Shown piece after piece: positions 12,966 to 57,673 of a stretch of 64,000 nt of DNA. Below the pieces are notes generated by a model. That model was given only the letters and a program-made list of their open reading frames with translations. It was not told the DNA's origin and searched no databases. The DNA comes from Escherichia coli (GTDB lineage: Bacteria; Pseudomonadota; Gammaproteobacteria; Enterobacterales; Enterobacteriaceae). Location: assembly GCF_003018255.1 (NCBI RefSeq), contig NZ_CP027440.1. One strand, given 5' to 3'. Within the stretch, counting starts at the first letter, position 1, and every line of letters begins with the position of its first letter. A program made the translations under genes and the position numbers.

Positions 12966-13085
12966 ATGATGGTTACAGTTGTCAGCAATTATTGTCAATT
13001 ATCTCAAACCCAACTCTGTCAGACATTTGCAGAAAAATTTACTGTGACCGAGGAATTACTGCAGTCTTTAAAAAAACACTTATAA
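12966..13085 (+). CDS. hypothetical 39-aa sORF ([39 protein letters not shown]), possibly a remnant of a gene lost at this locus
   Basis: AAAGGAG Shine-Dalgarno immediately upstream of tandem ATG ATG; below the ORF-track size cut-off. Confidence 0.25.
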
Positions 13086-39476: not shown

Positions 39477-41621
39477 GTGTCCCGTATTATTATGCTGATC
39501 CCTACCGGAACCAGCGTCGGTCTGACCAGCGTCAGCCTTGGCGTGATCCGTGCAATGGAACGCAAAGGCGTTCGTCTGAGCGTTTTCAAACCTATCGCTC
39601 AGCCGCGTACCGGTGGCGATGCGCCCGATCAGACTACGACTATCGTACGTGCGAACTCTTCCACTACGACGGCCGCTGAACCGCTGAAAATGAGCTACGT
39701 TGAAGGTCTGCTTTCCAGCAATCAGAAAGATGTGCTGATGGAAGAGATCGTCGCAAACTACCACGCTAACACCAAAGACGCTGAAGTCGTTCTGGTTGAA
39801 GGTCTGGTCCCGACACGTAAGCACCAGTTTGCCCAGTCTCTGAACTACGAAATCGCTAAAACGCTGAATGCGGAAATCGTCTTCGTTATGTCTCAGGGCA
39901 CTGACACCCCGGAACAGCTGAAAGAGCGTATCGAACTGACCCGCAACAGCTTCGGCGGTGCCAAAAACACCAACATCACCGGCGTTATCGTTAACAAACT
40001 GAATGCACCGGTTGATGAACAGGGCCGTACTCGCCCGGATCTGTCCGAGATTTTCGACGACTCTTCCAAAGCTAAAGTAAACAATGTTGATCCGGCGAAG
40101 CTGCAAGAATCCAGCCCGCTGCCGGTTCTCGGCGCAGTGCCGTGGAGCTTTGACCTGATCGCGACTCGTGCGATCGATATGGCTCGCCACCTGAATGCGA
40201 CCATCATCAACGAAGGCGACATCAATACTCGCCGCGTTAAATCCGTCACTTTCTGCGCACGCAGCATTCCGCACATGCTGGAGCACTTCCGTGCCGGTTC
40301 TCTGCTGGTGACTTCCGCAGACCGTCCTGACGTGCTGGTTGCCGCGTGCCTGGCTGCCATGAACGGCGTAGAAATCGGTGCCCTGCTGCTGACTGGCGGC
40401 TACGAAATGGACGCGCGCATTTCTAAACTGTGCGAACGTGCTTTCGCTACCGGCCTGCCGGTATTTATGGTGAACACCAACACCTGGCAGACTTCTCTGA
40501 GCCTGCAGAGCTTCAACCTGGAAGTTCCGGTTGACGATCACGAGCGTATCGAGAAAGTTCAGGAATACGTTGCTAACTACATCAACGCTGACTGGATCGA
40601 TTCTCTGACGGCCACTTCTGAGCGCAGCCGTCGTCTGTCTCCGCCAGCGTTCCGTTATCAGCTGACTGAACTTGCGCGCAAAGCGGGCAAACGTATCGTT
40701 CTGCCGGAAGGTGACGAACCGCGTACCGTTAAGGCAGCCGCTATCTGTGCTGAACGTGGTATCGCAACTTGCGTACTGCTGGGTAATCCGGCAGAGATCA
40801 ACCGTGTTGCAGCGTCTCAGGGTGTAGAACTGGGTGCAGGCATTGAAATCGTTGATCCAGAAGTGGTTCGCGAAAGCTATGTTGGTCGTCTGGTCGAGCT
40901 GCGTAAGAACAAAGGCATGACCGAAACCGTTGCCCGCGAACAGCTGGAAGATAACGTGGTTCTCGGTACGCTGATGCTGGAACAGGATGAAGTTGATGGT
41001 CTGGTTTCCGGTGCTGTTCACACTACCGCAAACACCATCCGTCCGCCGCTGCAGCTGATCAAAACTGCACCGGGCAGCTCCCTGGTATCTTCCGTGTTCT
41101 TCATGCTGCTGCCGGAACAGGTTTACGTTTACGGTGACTGTGCGATCAACCCGGATCCGACCGCAGAACAGCTGGCAGAAATCGCGATTCAGTCCGCAGA
41201 TTCCGCTGCGGCCTTCGGTATCGAACCGCGCGTTGCTATGCTCTCCTACTCCACCGGGACTTCTGGTGCTGGTAGCGACGTAGAAAAAGTTCGCGAAGCA
41301 ACTCGTCTGGCGCAGGAAAAACGTCCTGACCTGATGATCGACGGTCCGCTGCAGTACGACGCTGCGGTAATGGCTGACGTTGCGAAATCCAAAGCACCGA
41401 ACTCTCCGGTTGCAGGTCGCGCTACCGTGTTCATCTTCCCGGATCTGAACACCGGTAACACCACCTACAAAGCGGTACAGCGTTCTGCTGACCTGATCTC
41501 TATCGGACCGATGCTGCAGGGTATGCGCAAGCCGGTTAACGACCTGTCCCGTGGCGCACTGGTTGACGATATCGTCTACACCATCGCGCTGACTGCGATT
41601 CAGTCTGCACAGCAGCAGTAA
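39477..41621 (+). CDS. pta: phosphate acetyltransferase
   Basis: 714-aa ORF with GTG start ([19 protein letters not shown]...). Confidence 0.96.
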
Positions 41622-44521: not shown

Positions 44522-45998
<1,477 letters not shown>

Positions 45999-46054
45999 CA
46001 GAAACAGGTTCTCGTGTATTATTTCATCCTAAGTAAAACAACGGAGAACCTGCA

Positions 46055-46417
46055 ATGGCACAACCTGCCGCTATTATTCGTATAAAGAACCTTCGTTTAC
46101 GTACGTTTATCGGAATTAAGGAAGAAGAAATTAACAACCGTCAGGATATTGTTATCAATGTGACTATCCACTACCCCGCCGATAAAGCGCGCACCAGCGA
46201 AGATATCAACGATGCGCTGAATTATCGCACCGTGACGAAAAACATTATTCAGCATGTAGAGAATAACCGTTTCTCTTTGCTGGAAAAATTAACTCAGGAT
46301 GTGCTCGATATCGCACGTGAACATCACTGGGTGACGTATGCTGAAGTGGAGATCGATAAACTGCACGCGCTGCGCTACGCCGATTCGGTATCCATGACCT
46401 TAAGCTGGCAGCGTTAA
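46055..46417 (+). CDS. folX: dihydroneopterin triphosphate 2'-epimerase
   Basis: 120-aa FolB/FolX-fold ORF. Confidence 0.88.
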
Positions 46418-47552: not shown

Positions 47553-48281
47553 CAGTTTCTCCTTTTCTTGTGGTGCGCGTTCCGCTATCTCACCAATAAA
47601 TGCACGGAAACGCTGGGCATCCCCCGTTTGTAATACGTAATTAAACAGGGCTTTTAGCTGTCTGTCATTAGTGTTCCCTGTAACTAGCAGCGAAACAATT
47701 TGGTCGACTAATCCCAACAGATCGCGCTGACGAATATGTTTCTGAATTAACTCCAACAGCGCCATTTTGCGATGTTGCATAATCTCGTCATCCGGCACCA
47801 CGGTAATATCTACCAGCGGAAAAGCCGATGAATAAATTTTGCGGGCTATAGCAGGCTCGGCAAATTCATCAAGCCAGCAAAGTGAATAAGGATAAGGACT
47901 TCTGCAACCATGATAAAACAGCATCGGGATCACCAATGGAAGCTCTTTATAGCCTGCATCAAGATGGTTTTGCATCGCCGCAATGGAATAGCGCATCATG
48001 CGAAAAGCCATTAATTCTTCCGGCTTACTTTGGTGCTCTATCACTACATAAATATAACCCGCTCCCTCCTGCGTTTTCACAGACCACAAGAGGTCGGAAT
48101 AATATTGCCGCAGGTCTTCATCAATAAAACTGTTTGGTTCCAGTTTTAGCGTTGTTAAATCACACAGTTTGCGCAGCGGCGCGGGAAGATGAATATCAAT
48201 AAAATCCCGCGCGGTGTCTGGATGGCGTAAAAAAGATTTAAATACCGCATCATGCGGCGTGGAAGTTGTCGATATTGTCAT
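47379..48281 (-). CDS. rpnB: recombination-promoting nuclease RpnB (PD-(D/E)xK, YhgA-like)
   Basis: 300-aa ORF, Rpn/transposase_31-like N-terminal domain plus small C-terminal domain. Confidence 0.85.
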
Positions 48282-48477
48282 GGCGTTCCGTCACCCCTCA
48301 AATTTAAGATGACGCGACAATAACCACGATTAATACCCAATGCAGCAGGCAGTTTTTATCTTTGGACAGCGAATTCAGAACTATTTTTAGCGGACTGCAA
48401 CTTTTACATTTCAGCGGAAGCTGACTCGCAAATTCCCCTTGAAAATACTCCGGCAGCGTTAGCCACCGGAGGGGGAA

Positions 48478-49251
48478 TTATTTCAGCGATCCCTTAAGGA
48501 ACTGTTGCAGACGAGGGCTTTGCGGGTTACCAAATAACTGTTCTGGCGCGCCCTCTTCTTCTATTTTCCCCTGATGGAGGAAAATGACGTGAGTAGAAAC
48601 ATGGCGAGCAAAGCCCATTTCGTGAGTCACTACCACCATGGTTTTCCCCTCTTCTGCCAGTTGCTGCATAATACGTAACACTTCGCCTACCAGTTCAGGA
48701 TCGAGCGCCGAGGTAGGTTCATCAAATAGTAAAACTTCCGGTTCCATTGCCAGCGCCCTTGCGATGGAAACACGCTGTTGCTGACCACCGGACAGGTGCA
48801 CCGGGTATTTCCCCTGCGCACGTTCGTCTATCCCGACTTTTGCCAGATATTTCACCGCCCGCTCGCGCGCTTCCTGCTTGCTCAGGCCCAACACCTGAAT
48901 CGGCGCTTCCATGACGTTTTCCAGCACCGTCATATGGCTCCAGAGATTGAAGTGCTGGAATACCATCGTCAGGCGTGTGCGCAATAAGCGCAGCTGATTT
49001 TTATCGGCGACTTTGAGTTGACCGTCTTTATCGCGCACCAGATTGATCGTCTGGCCATTGACCACGATCGATCCTTCGCTCGGTTTTTCGAGGAAGTTAA
49101 TGCAGCGCAGAAAGGTACTTTTCCCCGATCCCGACGATCCGATGATGCTTATGACATCTCCGGCATTCGCTTGCAGTGAGACCCCTTTCAGCACTTCGTG
49201 TTCGCCGTAGCGTTTGTGCAAATCGATAACGTTTAATTTATTCTCGGACAT
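48478..49251 (-). CDS. hisP: histidine/Lys-Arg-Orn ABC transporter ATP-binding protein
   Basis: 257-aa ORF with Walker A (GSSGSGKST) and ABC signature (LSGGQQQR). Confidence 0.95.
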
Positions 49252-49258
49252 CGTATTC

Positions 49259-49975
49259 TCAGTGCGTTGAAGAAGGTTTCACATGCTGCAACCAGCGTTT
49301 TTCCGCTCTGCGAAAGAGGCTGATCAGGACATAAGAGATGATTAAATAGAGCACCGCGGCAATGCCGAAGGCGGTAAAAGGTTGATACGTGGCGGCGTTA
49401 ATATCGCGGGCAATTTTCAGCAGATCCGGCACCGTGGCCGTAAACGCCAGCGCAGTAGAGTGCAGCATCAGGATCACTTCGTTGCTGTATGCCGGTAACG
49501 CAATACGCAGCGCAGAAGGCAAAATAATGCAGCGATACATTTTAAAGGTCGAGAAGCCATAGGCTCTGGCGGCTTCAATTTCCCCATGCGGCACTGAACG
49601 GATTGCCCCGGCAAAAATCTCGGTAGTGTAAGCGCAGGTGTTAAGCGTCAGCGCCAGCACGGTACAGTTCAGACCACTGCGAAAAAAGGCGTTAAGGAAC
49701 TCGGTTCCCTTAACAATCTCCAGCGTGTACATGCCGGAATAAAACACCAGCAACTGAACATACAGCGGCGTACCGCGAAAAATATAGGTAAATAACCAGA
49801 TTGGAAACTGGATGTATTTATTACTTGAGACGCGACCAATCGCCAGAAACAGCGCCAGAACTCCGCCTATCACTACCGACAAAATCAGCAGCCACAGGGT
49901 GATTGCCACGCCAGTAAAGCGATAACCGTCAGTCCACAGCAGTGGTTTCCAGTATTCATGTAAGATTTCGATCAC
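49259..49975 (-). CDS. hisM: histidine/Lys-Arg-Orn ABC transporter permease
   Basis: 238-aa permease ORF; overlaps hisQ. Confidence 0.92.
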
Positions 49976-50658
49976 AGGTCAGACCTCTTCACACCCACGG
50001 AGTAGCGGCGCTCAAGGAACAGCAGCACACCATTGGAAACAGTGGTAAAAACCAGGTAAATCACGCCACAGACGATGGCGAAATAGAACGGTTCCCAGGT
50101 ACTTTTGCCTGCCAGCTGAGTGGCTTTGACCACATCTTCCAGGCCGAGTAACGAAACGAGTGCGGTAGATTTGAGGATCACCTGCCAGTTGTTGCCAATG
50201 CCTGGCAGGGCGTAACGCATCATCGCCGGAAACATGATCCGCCGAAACACTTGCCCACGAGTAAAACCGAACGCCGTCGCCGCCTCTATATGTCCTTTCG
50301 GCACTGCCATAAAAGCACCACGGAACGTTTCGGTAAAATAAGCACCGTAGATAAAACCGAGAGTGATAATACCTGCGACCATCGGATCAATATCAATCTG
50401 CCCGACGCCCATCGCCTCCGTCACCGTGTTTAGCGCAATCTGCAAACCGTAGAAAATCAGCAGCATCAACACCAAGTCCGGCACGCCTCGAATCAGCGTG
50501 GTGTACCCTTCGAAAATCAGCCCCGAAAGCCGATTTTGCGAGAGCTTACCGCCAGCGCCAATTAAACCGATAATTACAGCGAGCACTACAGAGCTGATAG
50601 CCAGCTCCAGCGTGACGAGCGCACCCTGTAAAATAACACCTGAAAACCCATACAACAT
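49972..50658 (-). CDS. hisQ: histidine/Lys-Arg-Orn ABC transporter permease
   Basis: 228-aa permease ORF. Confidence 0.92.
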   Translation of the reverse strand: MLYGFSGVILQGALVTLELAISSVVLAVIIGLIGAGGKLSQNRLSGLIFEGYTTLIRGVPDLVLMLLIFYGLQIALNTVTEAMGVGQIDIDPMVAGIITLGFIYGAYFTETFRGAFMAVPKGHIEAATAFGFTRGQVFRRIMFPAMMRYALPGIGNNWQVILKSTALVSLLGLEDVVKATQLAGKSTWEPFYFAIVCGVIYLVFTTVSNGVLLFLERRYSVGVKRSDL

Positions 50659-50747
50659 GCTGCCTGTCCTGTCGTGTGTGGTGAATTACCGCCTCTTGTC
50701 TCCCTCCGGTTACCCGAAGGGAGCGGACCTTCTTTCACCGATGGCGA

Positions 50748-51530
50748 TTAACCACCATAAACATCAAAATCGAAGTACTTTTTCGCTAATTTCTCGTAAG
50801 TACCGTCAGCGCGCATTTCGGCAAAGGCTTTGTTCAGTGCCTCGCGCAGTTCGTTATCTTCTTTACGCAGGCCCATGCCGGTCCCTACGCCAAACAGTTT
50901 TTCATCTTTAACAGACGGACCACCGAATTTGTAATCTTTACCGACGGGTTGTTTGAGGAAACCTTCGCTGGCAGCGACCTCATCCTGGAACGCGGCATCA
51001 ATACGTCCGGCAGTCAGGTCAGAATAAATGTTGTCCTGCCCCTGATAAGAAACGATTTCAATGCCTTTTGGTGCCCAATGTTCGTTACCGAACGTCTCCT
51101 GGGTGGTGCCCTGCAATACGCCTACCCGTTTGCCTTTCAGCGACTCGACTGTCGGCTGAATGTCGGAATTTTTCGCCACCACCAGACGAGAATCGGCAGC
51201 GTACAGTTTGTCGGTGAAGGCAATTTCTTGCTGACGTTTTTCCGTAATGGAAAGCGATGACATGATGGCGTCAATCTTCTTCGCTTTTAAGGACGGGATT
51301 AACGCATCCAGTGGGTTTTCGACAAACGTACATTGCGTATTGATGCGTTTGCACAACTCCTTCGCCAGATCGATATCGAAGCCAACCAGTTCGCCTTGTG
51401 AATTTTTTGATTCAAATGGCGCATAGGTCGGATCGGTACCGATGCGGATGTTTTGCGGAATCGCAGCAAACGCAGCAGTTGCGCTGGAGAAGGCCAGAAC
51501 CAGAGAGAGCGATAGCACCAGTTTTTTCAT
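50748..51530 (-). CDS. hisJ: histidine-binding periplasmic protein
   Basis: 260-aa ORF with signal peptide; paralog of adjacent argT. Confidence 0.92.
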
Positions 51531-51665
51531 AATGTCCTCAACTGACAGTCTTTTTATAGGGAATATTTACAGGTTTGTTACACTTATCGTGCCATAAAAT
51601 TGACCATCAAGGCAAAATATCCCGCCCCGTTAGACGTATTATTTTTCATTAAAAATGCTTAAGTA

Positions 51666-51720
51666 TGCATTTCAATGCACCACGATAGTGCAACAAACCT
51701 GGCGTGCACCATGATGATCA
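51666..51720. promoter_or_regulatory. cluster of operator-like palindromes between argT and hisJ (NtrC- or ArgR-type candidates)
   Basis: TGCATT-TC-AATGCA perfect palindrome overlapping TGCACC-ACGAT-AGTGCA, then GTGCACCATGATGATCA. Confidence 0.35.
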
Positions 51721-51750
51721 TTCCATCAGGTACAGTTTCCCTGCGACGTA

Positions 51751-52533
51751 TCAGTCACCGTAGACATTAAAGTCGAAATACTTTTTCGCCATCTTGTCGT
51801 AGGTACCGTCCTGACGCAGCTCGCCAAGCGCCTTATTAAACGCCGCCGTCAGTTCAGCATCATCTTTACGTAGCCCTACACCGGTACCGTCACCGAAGTA
51901 TTTTTTGTCTTTCACTGATGAGCCAGCAAAAGCGAACTCTTTACCGGCTGGTTGCTTGAGGAATCCTTCACTGGCAGCAACTTCATCTTGTAACGCAGCA
52001 TCCAGACGTCCTGCAGCCAGATCGGAATAAACCAAATCCTGGTTGGCATAGGCCACCACATCCACGCCTTTGCTACGCCAGGTCTCGTTAGCGTATGCTT
52101 CCTGGGTTGATCCCTGCAGCACACCCACATGTTTACCTTTCAGTGAATCCAGCGTTGGCTGAATCGGTGAACCTTTGGCGGCAATCAAACGAGAATCTGC
52201 GGCGTACAACTTGTCGGAGAAAGCAATCTCCTGCTGACGTTTATCGGTAATGGAGAGCGACGAAATAATGGCGTCGATTTTTTTCGCTTTTAGTGAGGGG
52301 ATCAGCGCGTCAAAGTCACTGGCAACCCAGGTACATTTCACCTGCATCCGTTTGCACATCTCGTTACCGAGATCGATATCAAAGCCAACAAAGTCACCTT
52401 TGGCATCTTTCGATGAGAACGGCGCATAGGTGGTATCGGTTCCGATACGTACCGTCTCCGGTAGCGCCGCATAGCTGGAAGCCGCTGCGGAGAGACCGAC
52501 TAACAAAGACAGAGCGAGAATCGACTTCTTCAT
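51751..52533 (-). CDS. argT: lysine/arginine/ornithine-binding periplasmic protein
   Basis: 260-aa ORF with signal peptide; upstream paralog of hisJ. Confidence 0.92.
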
Positions 52534-52798: not shown

Positions 52799-53368
52799 TT
52801 ATGCGCCCTGCCAGCGGGCAAAGAGATCTTCAGGAAGGGTTATCGCAAACTGGTCAAGAACACGATTAACCGTCTGATTTATCACATCATCAAGGGATTG
52901 TGGGCGATGATAAAACGCCGGAACGGGAGGCATAATCACCGCACCGATTTCTGCCGCCTGAGTCATTAAACGCAGATGGCCTAAGTGCAGTGGCGTTTCA
53001 CGCACGCAGAGCACCAACGGGCGACGCTCTTTCAGCACCACATCTGCCGCACGGGTCAGTAAGCCATCAGTATAGCTATGGACAATGCCGGACAGGGTTT
53101 TGATTGAACAGGGTAAAATCACCATCCCCAACGTCTGGAAAGAACCGGAAGAAATGCTGGCAGCAATATCGCGCGCATCGTGTGTCACATCAGCTAACGC
53201 CTGCACTTCGCGCAGGGAAAAATCCGTTTCGAGGGATAAGGTCTGGCGCGCTGCCTGGCTCATTACCAGATGCGTTTCGATATCTGTGACATCGCGCAGA
53301 ACCTGTAATAAACGCACGCCATAAATCGCGCCGCTGGCACCGCTGATGCCTACAATGAGTCGTTTCAT
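52799..53368 (-). CDS. ubiX: flavin prenyltransferase UbiX
   Basis: 189-aa flavoprotein-fold ORF downstream of purF. Confidence 0.92.
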   Translation of the reverse strand: MKRLIVGISGASGAIYGVRLLQVLRDVTDIETHLVMSQAARQTLSLETDFSLREVQALADVTHDARDIAASISSGSFQTLGMVILPCSIKTLSGIVHSYTDGLLTRAADVVLKERRPLVLCVRETPLHLGHLRLMTQAAEIGAVIMPPVPAFYHRPQSLDDVINQTVNRVLDQFAITLPEDLFARWQGA

Positions 53369-53462
53369 AAATAGTTGCCCTGTCAGACTTGCAGGCAGAC
53401 TTTGCAGGATTTCGACGGGAGTTGCAAGTCAGGGTGCCAGACCGGCACCCTGAGCGAAGGCA

Positions 53463-54981
53463 TCATCCTTCGTTATGCATTTCGAGATTTTCCACTTCGT
53501 TCTGACGTTGCACTGCTTTGGCGTCGTCATTACGTAAAGTATCGAGGAAATCGAGGTAGCCCTGATCAACGTCTTTGGTGACGTAGACGCCGTTGAATAC
53601 CGAGCATTCAAACTGCTGGATATCCGGGTTTTCAGCGCGAACGGCTTCGATCAGATCGTTCAGATCCTGGAAAATCAACCCGTCAGCACCGATGATCTGG
53701 CGAATTTCATCTACTTCGCGACCGTGAGCGATCAGTTCCGTGGCGCTCGGCATATCGATACCGTAAACGTTCGGGAAGCGAATTTCCGGTGCCGCAGAAG
53801 CGAGGTACACTTTCTTCGCTCCGGCTTCGCGTGCCATCTCGATAATCTGCTCAGAAGTGGTGCCACGGACAATGGAGTCGTCGACCAGCAAGACGTTTTT
53901 ATCGCGGAACTCGGCGCGGTTGGCGTTCAGTTTACGGCGCACGGACTTACGACGCAGCTGCTGGCCCGGCATGATGAAGGTGCGGCCAACATAGCGGTTT
54001 TTAACGAAGCCCTGGCGGTACGGTTTGCCCAGAATACGAGCAATTTCCAGCGCGATATCACACGAGGTTTCCGGAATAGGGATCACCACGTCGATATCCA
54101 GATCTTCCCATTCGCGGGCAATTTTCTCGCCCAGTTTGGTGCCCATATTCACGCGCGCGCTGTAAACGGAAATTTTGTCGATGAACGAGTCCGGGCGGGC
54201 AAAGTATACATACTCAAACAGGCACGGATTGCTGACCGGATTGTCAGCACATTGACGGGTAAACAACTGCCCTTCTTCAGTGATGTAAATCGCTTCGCCC
54301 GGCGCGACGTCACGCAGGAAATCAAAGCCCAGCGTATCGAGCGCAACGCTTTCGGAAGCGACCATATATTCTGTACGGTTCTCGTCAATATCACGTTTTC
54401 CCAGTACCAACGGACGAATACCGTTTGGATCGCGGAAAGCAACCATACCGTGGCCGATGATCATCGCCACACAGGCATACGCGCCGCGGATTAAGCGGTT
54501 TGTAGCAGCGATGGCGGCGAAAATGTTGTCGGCTTCCAGCGGATAGTGGCGGAAGTTGTCCAGTTCGCTGGCAAAGATATTAAGCAGAATTTCCGAGTCG
54601 GAAGTGGTGTTGATGTGGCGGCGTTTTTCTTCAAACAGTTTTTTTACGCAACTCGTGAGCGTTGGTCAGATTGCCGTTGTGGGCAAGCGTAATGCCATAC
54701 GGGGAGTTAACGTAAAACGGCTGCGCTTCAGAGGCGCTGGAGCTGCCAGCCGTAGGGTAACGCACATGACCAATGCCCATATTGCCCTGCAAACGCTGCA
54801 TATGGCGAGCTTCAAATACATCGCTCACCAGCCCGTTCGCTTTACGCAAACGGAAGCAGTTATTGGCATCTATGGTGATGATGCCGGCGGCATCCTGACC
54901 GCGATGCTGAAGCACCGTTAAGGCATCATAAATCGACTGGTTAACCGGCATAACACCGGCGATACCGACAATACCGCACAT
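53463..54981 (-). pseudogene. purF: amidophosphoribosyltransferase PurF, reading frame broken by a +1 insertion in a homopolymer run (or sequencing error)
   Basis: N-terminal 116-aa ORF ([10 protein letters not shown]...ELRKKTV*) and C-terminal 335-aa ORF lie in different frames; coding strand reads CGT AAA AAA ACT GTT TGA at the junction. Confidence 0.8.
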
Positions 54982-55017: not shown

Positions 55018-55506
55018 TTACGCTCTGGGCAAGAAACTTGACGAGCTTTGCAGATAATCAAAAAACCATCTGATGATAAAACTGAACTGCGGGATCAGCT
55101 GTGATTTGCTCCAGTCTTCGCTTTTCGACACCCCGGTAAAGGAGTCGAGAAAGAAGAGAATGGCGGCAACAATCAACACACCGCGCAACGCACCGAAACA
55201 GACGCCCAGCACCCGATCGGTGCCTGACAACCCCGTTTTCTCTACCAACTGGCCTATCACGAAGTTCACGATAGCACCAACGATCAGGGTAGCGATAAAC
55301 AGTACCGCGATGGCAATCCCATTTCGAACCAGTTCGTCTTCAAAGCCCGTAAACCAGACTGACAGGTAAGTGTAGTAATGACTGGCAACAAAGAAAGCAC
55401 AACCCCATGTCACCAGCGATAACGCTTCACGAACAAAGCCGCGGATCAGGCTAACCAGAGAGGAAAAAGCAATCACCGCGATTATGGCGTAATCAATCCA
55501 GACCAT
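55018..55506 (-). CDS. cvpA: colicin V production membrane protein
   Basis: 162-aa membrane ORF immediately upstream of purF. Confidence 0.92.
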   Translation of the reverse strand: MVWIDYAIIAVIAFSSLVSLIRGFVREALSLVTWGCAFFVASHYYTYLSVWFTGFEDELVRNGIAIAVLFIATLIVGAIVNFVIGQLVEKTGLSGTDRVLGVCFGALRGVLIVAAILFFLDSFTGVSKSEDWSKSQLIPQFSFIIRWFFDYLQSSSSFLPRA

Positions 55507-55563
55507 ATGTGTCCCACGATTTTACGCCCTGTCATCCTGTTCGGGGCGCATTCTAACAGAAAA

Positions 55564-55579
55564 AGAAAACGTTTGCGTA
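55564..55579 (-). promoter_or_regulatory. PurR operator (PUR box) upstream of cvpA-purF
   Basis: Minus-strand TACGCAAACGTTTTCT, near-perfect match to the 16-bp PUR box palindrome, about 60 bp upstream of cvpA ATG. Confidence 0.7.
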
Positions 55580-55764: not shown

Positions 55765-56415
55765 TTAATTCGGCGTATAGCCCATTACCACGCCACTTAA
55801 GCCAGAAAGTTGCTTCAACTCACCCAGCGATCCTTTCAGCTTATCTTTCGAGGCATCAGGCCCAACCAGAATACGGGTAATTTTACCCTGCACTGGCGTG
55901 GATGGCGACGTATAAACCCGATAACCGGCACCGCGCAGCTTACCGACAATCTCATTCACTTTATCGGCATTTTTCAGCGCGCCCAGTTGCACAACATAGG
56001 CTTTACCCGTTGGCGCTGCTTTTTCTTCCACGACCGGCTTCGACGCAGGTGGTGCTTCAACCTTCGGTTTAGGCGACTCCACCGGTTTCGGCTTCGGTGG
56101 GGCGACCGGTGCAGGTTCCGGTTCAAACTCGGTGTTATTGACTGCAATAGTGGCCGGATCGAGCGACGGTGCTGCGGCATCACCTGCCCGCACCTCTTCC
56201 GCTGCGCCTTCCGGCGGCTGCGTCGGCAGCGCCTGGGTGGCGGCTGGCATCATATCAGGCTCATCGCGATCGCCCGCTTTCGGCACCAGCGGGATAGCCG
56301 CGAACTCATCCTGATAATGTTTTTTCTGCCCGTCCAGCAGCCCTGGAAGTACAATCACCCCCAGCGCCACCAGCACGATCGTGCCCACTAACCGATTCTG
56401 AAACTTACTTGCCAC
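55765..56415 (-). CDS. dedD: cell-division protein DedD (SPOR domain, Pro/Lys-rich linker)
   Basis: Probable GTG start giving MASKFQNRLVGT... (alternative ATG at 56433); C-terminal SPOR-like domain; overlaps folC 3' end. Confidence 0.8.
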   Translation of the reverse strand: MASKFQNRLVGTIVLVALGVIVLPGLLDGQKKHYQDEFAAIPLVPKAGDRDEPDMMPAATQALPTQPPEGAAEEVRAGDAAAPSLDPATIAVNNTEFEPEPAPVAPPKPKPVESPKPKVEAPPASKPVVEEKAAPTGKAYVVQLGALKNADKVNEIVGKLRGAGYRVYTSPSTPVQGKITRILVGPDASKDKLKGSLGELKQLSGLSGVVMGYTPN

Positions 56416-57673
56416 CGCTTCTCCTCGCGTCAATCACTTCCATGACATGTGCGACCGTGTGGAACGAACCACACACCAGCACGGTATCTTCCGCTTTAGC
56501 GTCCGCCATTGCGGCATCCCATGCCTGCGCCACGCTATCAAATGATTTGCCGTTACCCAAATGCTCAAGCAGTTGTTCTGCCGTGGCACCGCGCGGCCCT
56601 TCCAGTGGCGCACAATACCAGTCATCAACCACGCTTTTCAACCAGGCCAGAGTTCCGGCAATATCTTTATCATGTAGCATACCGATAACCGCCAGCACGC
56701 GCCCGTTTTTCGGTAGCGCTTTCATACGCCCGGTGAGATATTCCGCCGCATGTGGATTATGCGCGACATCAAAAATAACGCGTGGCGACTCGCTCACAAT
56801 CTGGAAACGTCCCGGCAAAATTGCGCTGGCAATCCCGTCGCGAATGGCATTTTCACTGACCTCCAGCCCGCTGGCACGCAGTGCCGCCAGCGCCGTTGCG
56901 GCATTCGGTTGCGGGACAAGCGGCAACGGCAGATTTTTCAGCGTGCCGTGAGCATCGCTAAACGCCCAGTCATGATCGGTGACGGAATAGTTCCACTCAA
57001 CGCCCCGACGTTGTAACAGTGCACTTTTTTCCTGCGCCACATCAGCAATGGTAGAAGGCATTTCCGGCTCACCGACAATTGCCGGTTTTTCGCTGCGGAA
57101 GATGCCTGCTTTCTCGCGACCAATGCTTTCGCGATCTGGCCCCAGCCAGTCGGTATGATCCAGCGCAATGCTGGTTACTACCGCAACATCGGCATCGACA
57201 ATATTGGTTGCGTCCAGACGACCGCCCAGCCCTACTTCCAGAATCACCACGTCAAGTTGTGCCTGTTTGAACAGCCACAACGCCGACAGCGTACCGTACT
57301 CGAAATAGGTCAGGGAAATATCACCGCGTGCCGATTCAATCTCCGCAAAAGAGGCGGTGTGGGCCGATTCCGGCAATTCCTGGCCCTGCACACGTACGCG
57401 CTCGGTATAACGCACCAGATGCGGCGAACTGTAGACGCCCACTTTGTACCCTGCCGCCATCAGAATCGACTCCAGCGTACGGCAAGTGGTGCCTTTGCCA
57501 TTCGTACCCGCAACGGTAAACACAAATGGCGCAGGTTTCAGGACGCCAAGACGCGCCGCGACCTGGCTCACGCGCTCAAGGCCGAGATCGATAGTTTTAC
57601 TGTGCAGGTTTTCCAGATAAGAAAGCCACGAAGCCAGAGGCGACGCGGCTTGAGGAGTGCGTTTGATAATCAT
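56405..57673 (-). CDS. folC: dihydrofolate synthase / folylpolyglutamate synthase
   Basis: 422-aa Mur-ligase-family ORF. Confidence 0.93.
   Translation of the reverse strand: MIIKRTPQAASPLASWLSYLENLHSKTIDLGLERVSQVAARLGVLKPAPFVFTVAGTNGKGTTCRTLESILMAAGYKVGVYSSPHLVRYTERVRVQGQELPESAHTASFAEIESARGDISLTYFEYGTLSALWLFKQAQLDVVILEVGLGGRLDATNIVDADVAVVTSIALDHTDWLGPDRESIGREKAGIFRSEKPAIVGEPEMPSTIADVAQEKSALLQRRGVEWNYSVTDHDWAFSDAHGTLKNLPLPLVPQPNAATALAALRASGLEVSENAIRDGIASAILPGRFQIVSESPRVIFDVAHNPHAAEYLTGRMKALPKNGRVLAVIGMLHDKDIAGTLAWLKSVVDDWYCAPLEGPRGATAEQLLEHLGNGKSFDSVAQAWDAAMADAKAEDTVLVCGSFHTVAHVMEVIDARRSGGK

Follow-up and report, generated by a model that had tools for sequence, protein, structure and literature searches.

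A surplus adenine in purF of an Escherichia coli chromosome: an assembly error or a very recent mutation rather than a special coding mechanism

The purF gene in the 64,000-nucleotide stretch of Escherichia coli DNA analyzed here (hereafter the window) is written in two reading frames, and this raises the question of whether the sequence records an error of the assembly, a recent mutation, or a frameshift that the cell decodes. The entire locus (53463..54981, minus strand) occupies 1,519 nt compared with 1,518 nt in relatives, and the frame is lost at coding nt 337 to 343. At the junction, the coding strand, which is the minus strand, reads GAG TTG CGT AAA AAA ACT GTT TGA, with CAC as the codon before GAG. 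The A7 homopolymer within it (T7 on the plus strand, 54639..54645) consists of the codons for Lys113 and Lys114 plus one surplus A, and the same run is A6 in relatives. An N-terminal ORF of 116 aa (54631..54981, minus strand) comprises PurF residues 1 to 114 followed by Thr-Val, ends with ELRKKTV, and is closed by a TGA stop at 54631..54633, while a C-terminal ORF of 335 aa (53463..54470, minus strand) starts with GTG at 54470 (333 aa if ATG 54464 is the start) and covers PurF residues from about 171 to 505.

When one A was removed in silico, purF became a single ORF of 505 aa. The repaired protein had the same sequence as the PurF of the strains JNE23-011 and JNE112863 (WP_000334221.1) and differed from K-12 PurF solely by D445E, and, apart from the surplus A, every base of the gene was the same as in the JNE genomes. 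An earlier note, made from the letters of this DNA, had described purF as two ORFs of 116 aa (54631..54981) and 335 aa (53463..54470), had given the junction as CGT AAA AAA ACT GTT TGA (ELRKK-TV-stop) and the plus-strand T-run as 54639..54645, and had expected a PurF of about 505 aa upon removal of one A; our reading of the minus strand and the repaired ORF bore out each of these points. The note had also called for the A-run to be counted against a reference purF, and the count was six in relatives and seven here. The purF lesion is present in the sequence as described, with A7 where other E. coli have A6.

We then asked what the two ORFs retain of the enzyme, using TIGR01134, the NCBIfam equivalog model for PurF, whose curated cutoff is 350 bits for the whole-protein score. 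The 116-aa ORF scored 153.4 bits and the 335-aa ORF 340.2 bits, so that neither reached the cutoff as written, while the repaired 505-aa protein passed it with 542.5 bits, identifying the locus as purF. In Pfam terms, the glutamine amidotransferase domains cover residues 65-214 of full-length PurF and the Pribosyltran domain covers residues 287-395. The chain breaks at residue 114, within the class-II glutamine amidotransferase domain and before the phosphoribosyltransferase domain begins. The MCGIVG start with the N-terminal nucleophile Cys is present on the 116-aa ORF and the phosphoribosyltransferase domain is on the other one, and no single chain holds the Cys nucleophile, the glutaminase domain, and the phosphoribosyltransferase domain together. 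Since neither fragment reaches the TIGR01134 cutoff and the glutaminase domain is interrupted, loss of function is expected if the base is real; the allele as written is a null one.

Two ways in which activity might survive the break were considered and rejected. A working enzyme made of two pieces is incompatible with a break inside the glutaminase domain and with the absence of PurF residues 115-170 from both ORFs. Separate translation of the phosphoribosyltransferase fragment was rejected since a search for a Shine-Dalgarno-like sequence before GTG 54470 and ATG 54464 found none at either start.

The window corresponds to the E. coli chromosome from arnA to yfcJ, with arn, men, ela, nuo, lrhA, alaA, ackA-pta, hisJQMP-argT, ubiX, purF, cvpA, dedD, folC, and accD, and its gene order is that of annotated relatives. 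Genes were scored as intact if they had a correct start, no internal stop, and a length divisible by three. Among the 62 complete genes of the window, purF was the sole broken one; the remaining genes had been called intact in the earlier note, and all 61 of the 61 others were.

The genes cvpA (55018..55506, minus strand), which is directly upstream of purF, and ubiX (52799..53368, minus strand), which is located 94 nt downstream of the purF stop, are both intact, and cvpA, purF, and ubiX are arranged head to tail on the minus strand. Upstream of cvpA, a PurR-operator-like sequence, AAGAAAACGTTTGCGT (55563..55578), carries two mismatches to the palindromic consensus; it was the single match in the window, a number that did not exceed chance, as at least one match occurred in 45 of 100 shuffled sequences. 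Its position fits that of the site that we take to be the operator of the purF operon. According to a published description (PMC6705877), cvpA precedes purF, and there are polar effects on the latter. A perfect 8-bp inverted repeat, AGGGTGCC-GGTCT-GGCACCCT (53430..53452, minus strand), is present in the 94-nt gap between purF and ubiX; no T-run follows it, and hence it does not resemble an intrinsic terminator.

Two further features of the region were recorded. In the annotation of relatives, elaD, encoding a deubiquitinase, is represented only by a 111-nt remnant pseudogene at 12966..13076, and the window is collinear there. DedD (55765..56415) is 216 aa long both in the window and in the genomes closest to it, and 220 or 224 aa long in other lineages, the difference being an in-frame 12-nt indel.

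Comparison with close relatives placed the lesion in time. No RefSeq complete E. coli genome was an exact match to the window; the closest complete genomes were those of JNE23-011 and JNE112863, human isolates from Japan, to which the window aligned end to end over 64,000 bases with 88-89 substitutions and one indel, namely the purF A. Compared with strain 64.1, the purF base was again the only indel (36.9 kb). The length of homopolymer runs was compared as well. The window contains 61 runs of at least six bases (44 with six bases, 11 with seven, 5 with eight, and 1 with nine), and the length differed from that in relatives at 1 of the 61, the purF run; all 16 other runs of seven to nine bases agreed with relatives. 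As such, A7 runs are not unusual in this DNA, with 24 matches in the window versus 18.4 expected by chance. An assembly that is generally or systematically noisy is therefore excluded.

The substitutions that distinguish the window from the JNE genomes were clustered in pta (39600..40650), yfcG-folX (45900..46200), and rpnB-hisPMQJ-argT (48000..52500), with only 13 in the first 39 kb, a pattern resembling that of recombination tracts within a near-clonal background. FolC (56405..57673) carries a rare E246K change relative to the JNE genomes, and the identical protein is encoded by about 70 contigs, every one of which bears the name E. coli.

The exact FolC protein with E246K served as a lineage marker for finding contigs of the same lineage. 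The 24 contigs that were read with this allele showed three kinds of neighborhood, with an intact purF of 505 aa in every one shown. A clone-mate draft, GCA_031666675.1, matched the window over 17,597 bases with 0 substitutions, the sole difference being the purF base: this draft has an A6 run and an intact 505-aa purF. The DNA of the clone-mate past the end of the window matched at 100% only the two JNE genomes. The extra A is thus private to this assembly and is missing from a near-identical one. Since the base is private and purF carries no other change, the event would be either very recent or non-biological. An ancient, lineage-wide pseudogene was rejected, as purF is intact in relatives and clone-mates.

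To see where else the allele occurs, A7 carriers were counted as exact 81-mer matches among the RefSeq complete E. coli genomes that have this region (n = 5,425, out of 5,426 searched). The A7 81-mer was found in 2 of the 5,425, 2014EL-1343-2 (NZ_CP024228.1) and NCTC9022 (NZ_LR134237.1), and purF is annotated as a "frameshifted" pseudogene in both. The two genomes resemble the window in the 81-mer (100%), the 1,519-nt locus, and the flanking cvpA and ubiX. 2014EL-1343-2 (O25:NM) and NCTC9022 have other chromosomal backgrounds, with 28-61 substitutions over 2.7 kb relative to the window, and because the backgrounds differ, their A7 runs represent independent events or errors and not common ancestry. 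In NCTC9022 the adjoining dedD is frameshifted too; in CP024228, purF is the sole pseudogene in 50 kb. The identical allele is thereby already catalogued as "frameshifted" in two public genomes and is an ordinary kind of feature. No account of a purF frameshift arising naturally in E. coli or Shigella came up in searches of the literature.

In a wider set of public assemblies, the exact 116-aa product was present on about 21 contigs, representing at least six haplotypes, and the contigs with 116-aa or 333-aa fragments were 97-98% identical to the window. These contigs were of different quality. Four of those encoding the 116-aa product (L006, L008, L009, and L010) had many broken neighboring genes, L008 showing 87 gap openings in 19 kb, and such fragmented neighbors in A7 contigs are the signature of long-read consensus errors. 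In two short-contig drafts with the 116-aa product (L011 and L012) the neighbors were intact, and one contig from a sequencing run was the same as K-12 MG1655 over 11,070 bases save the extra A. Given these clean contigs, real A6-to-A7 mutants probably exist. In metagenome contigs, which derive from short reads, A6 was found at 70 places and A7 at 0, and an A7 30-mer had no match in a species-representative genome collection or in the metagenome contigs. An A5 variant, encoding a 162-aa product, was much commoner than A7 in public assemblies (91, 63, 35, 35, 20, and 16 contigs as cluster members), and this excess may reflect under-calling of homopolymers in long-read assemblies.

Whether purF is hit more often than comparable runs was examined with in-silico 6-to-7 expansions of other coding A/T6 runs in the window, both as truncated products and as 81-mers. 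In RefSeq complete genomes, the control 81-mers were found in 0 of 4,869 for menB, 1 of 5,345 for alaA (another NCTC assembly), and 0 of 5,407 for usg, compared with the 2 of 5,425 for purF. In a large protein collection, the truncated products were found on 12 contigs for menB, 11 and 6 for usg, 7 for alaA, 3 for hisM, and 1 for folC, compared with 12 for purF. A purF-specific hotspot or a selected loss of the gene was rejected on the grounds that the counts at control runs were similar. Nor did the length of the run vary among close relatives more than that of comparable tracts, as it would at a phase-variable locus. These data point to a generic, low-rate, and roughly even process behind 6-to-7 calls, not to selection on purF, and this process could consist of consensus errors, random slippage mutations, or both.

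We favor, by a modest preference, the explanation that the extra A is a consensus error in which the assembly gave the homopolymer one base too many. The preference comes from the base being private, purF being without decay, the same call appearing in error-prone long-read assemblies, and purF showing no excess over control runs. Under this explanation the organism's own purF would most likely have the normal A6 and encode a normal 505-aa amidophosphoribosyltransferase, and the truncation, in which translation would end after residue 114 and two foreign residues inside the glutaminase domain, would belong to the sequence as written. For the call in this assembly, error and not a new mutation is what we infer. 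Against an error stands the cleanness of the window: with one indel in 64 kb and with the longer runs, which should be more error-prone, in agreement with relatives, an error here could only be an isolated, residual one. The occurrence of the same A7 in clean contexts (the K-12 MG1655-identical contig, L011, L012, and CP024228) also speaks against it. The laboratory behind the JNE genomes used short reads to polish its earlier genomes, which were hybrid assemblies (PMC10793325), and if the source of the window was made likewise, it is unlikely that an A6/A7 error in a unique region would have been left uncorrected.

The same observations lend weight to a real and very recent slipped-strand insertion that added one base to the A6 run, either in the isolate or in the course of laboratory passage on rich medium, and left purF null or at most very leaky; we regard this as a serious possibility, although not the likelier one. 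It agrees with the otherwise high quality of the window, in which longer homopolymers equal those of relatives, and with the identical event in the K-12-like contig and in clean contigs on other backgrounds; the presence of A7 on at least six haplotypes implies that the event recurs independently. The locus also has the two marks of a slipped-strand pseudogene, a frameshift in a mononucleotide run and a premature stop, and the scores of the fragments and the site of the break imply that function is lost if the base is real. A purF deletion mutant of Shigella sonnei was obtainable and, as a single strain, survived starvation without a significant defect (PMC13098226), and we would expect auxotrophs to persist on rich laboratory media. 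However, the deletion mutant was outcompeted under starvation (PMC13098226), so that a natural population is expected to purge the allele, and the A7 frequency, being not above that of control runs, gives no sign that purF loss is selected. The privacy of the allele, set against A6 in a clone-mate with 0 substitutions over 17.6 kb, and the lack of secondary decay also weigh against a real insertion, as does its low prior: by our own estimate from published E. coli mutation rates, a private real indel in a given 64 kb between near-identical clones is improbable. That purF is otherwise the same as intact alleles, with no further decay, fits a very recent event or an error alike. If real, the insertion is hours to years old and is not an evolved gene loss. 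The earlier note had offered inactivation or a homopolymer error as the two causes, with a slight lean to error, and the present evidence leaves the balance the same.

The earlier note had raised slippage-dependent expression as well, which as a designed mechanism found no support: A6 is the state of the population, the run is too short, and a compensating shift has only 11 codons in which to act. In its general form, this explanation holds that the frameshift is real and is bypassed, either because RNA polymerase slips and drops one A or because tRNA-Lys slips by +1 on AAA-A, or that the run is a reversible A6/A7 switch producing purine-auxotrophic subpopulations. We consider it very improbable. 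What can be said for it is that a +1 slip within the run re-pairs perfectly (AAA to AAA) and would restore exact wild-type PurF, and that A5 and A7 length variants of the purF run recur in public assemblies. Yet the shifted arrangement is unconserved: of the 5,425 complete genomes all but 2 have A6, as do the clone-mate and all 70 metagenome places, and hits at purF are no more frequent than at control runs. In the 0 frame the run is followed by ACU, not a stop, and the 15 nt before the run hold no Shine-Dalgarno-like motif. ACU is not a rare codon in E. coli, and typical phase-variable tracts are longer than the purF A7. With seven bases, the run is not a slippery tract of sufficient length for E. 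coli RNA polymerase, and it has no ribosomal stimulator.

Published measurements of slippage and suppression can be compared with what purF would require. RNA sequencing found 0.39% insertions by E. coli RNA polymerase on A7, but with GFP reporters rescue was undetectable at A runs shorter than 8, and no rescue by deletion, which is the direction needed at purF, occurred on any poly(A) run tested (PMC6260861). Non-programmed frameshift suppression in E. coli has been measured at 1-10%, in rescue windows of 56-91 codons (PMC10861913), versus 11 codons at purF. This stretch of 11 codons (54631..54665, minus strand), which extends from the last upstream stop of the C-terminal frame to the premature TGA, is the only one in which a compensating +1 shift by the ribosome could bring the two frames together. 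An A7 allele would be expected to yield no more than a fraction of a percent of the normal amount of PurF. An extended version, in which the purF AAA AAA run is a recurrent, reversible A5/A6/A7 switch that generates purine-auxotrophic subpopulations in independent lineages, with a slippage trickle of PurF in A7 cells, and acts as a weak housekeeping-gene analogue of a contingency locus, which would recall the heterogeneity of purF in Campylobacter jejuni, strikes us as highly unlikely. The sequence gives no apparent sign of deliberate frameshift decoding.

The consequences differ between the two leading explanations. If the extra A is an error, the annotation gains a spurious "frameshifted" pseudogene at purF and nothing else follows. 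If it is real, the first committed step of purine synthesis would be null and the strain would be expected to need purine and, probably, thiamine, which would affect its behavior in minimal media and in infection models; in addition, about 1.17 kb of purF mRNA would be left untranslated, and the resulting polarity could lower ubiX expression. More generally, public E. coli assemblies contain private 6-to-7 calls in coding A/T runs, at a rate that is low and about the same from gene to gene, and single calls of this kind without read support are not to be taken as biology. The finding is an ordinary feature, an error or a very recent mutation, and not a special coding mechanism.

This assignment can be placed beside known systems. 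Recoding at A-rich slippery sites occurs in dnaX (A AAA AAG, -1) and at prfB (CUU UGA C, +1), and in insertion-sequence transposases transcriptional slippage takes place on A/T runs of at least 9. Slippage of this kind is also reported for Citrobacter rodentium tssM (PMC4256274). A frame change within an A run read by tRNA-Lys is what purF has in common with these systems, from which it differs in its shorter run (7), in a shift of +1 and not -1, and in lacking a stimulator, a stop or rare codon where the shift would occur, and conservation of the shifted arrangement. [quoted passage not shown] The likeness there is the same gene with variant alleles within populations; the alleles described there are, however, viable and not homopolymer frameshifts, and comparable within-lineage variation was not seen among the genomes compared here. 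Slipped-strand frameshift pseudogenes share with purF the +1 change in a mononucleotide run, the stop two codons on, and fragments below the cutoff, but purF lacks their secondary decay and spread in the lineage. Lastly, compared with the homopolymer errors of long-read-only assemblies, the window differs in having no other such change in 64 kb, and it matches them in a single-base change in a coding A/T run that is private to one assembly.
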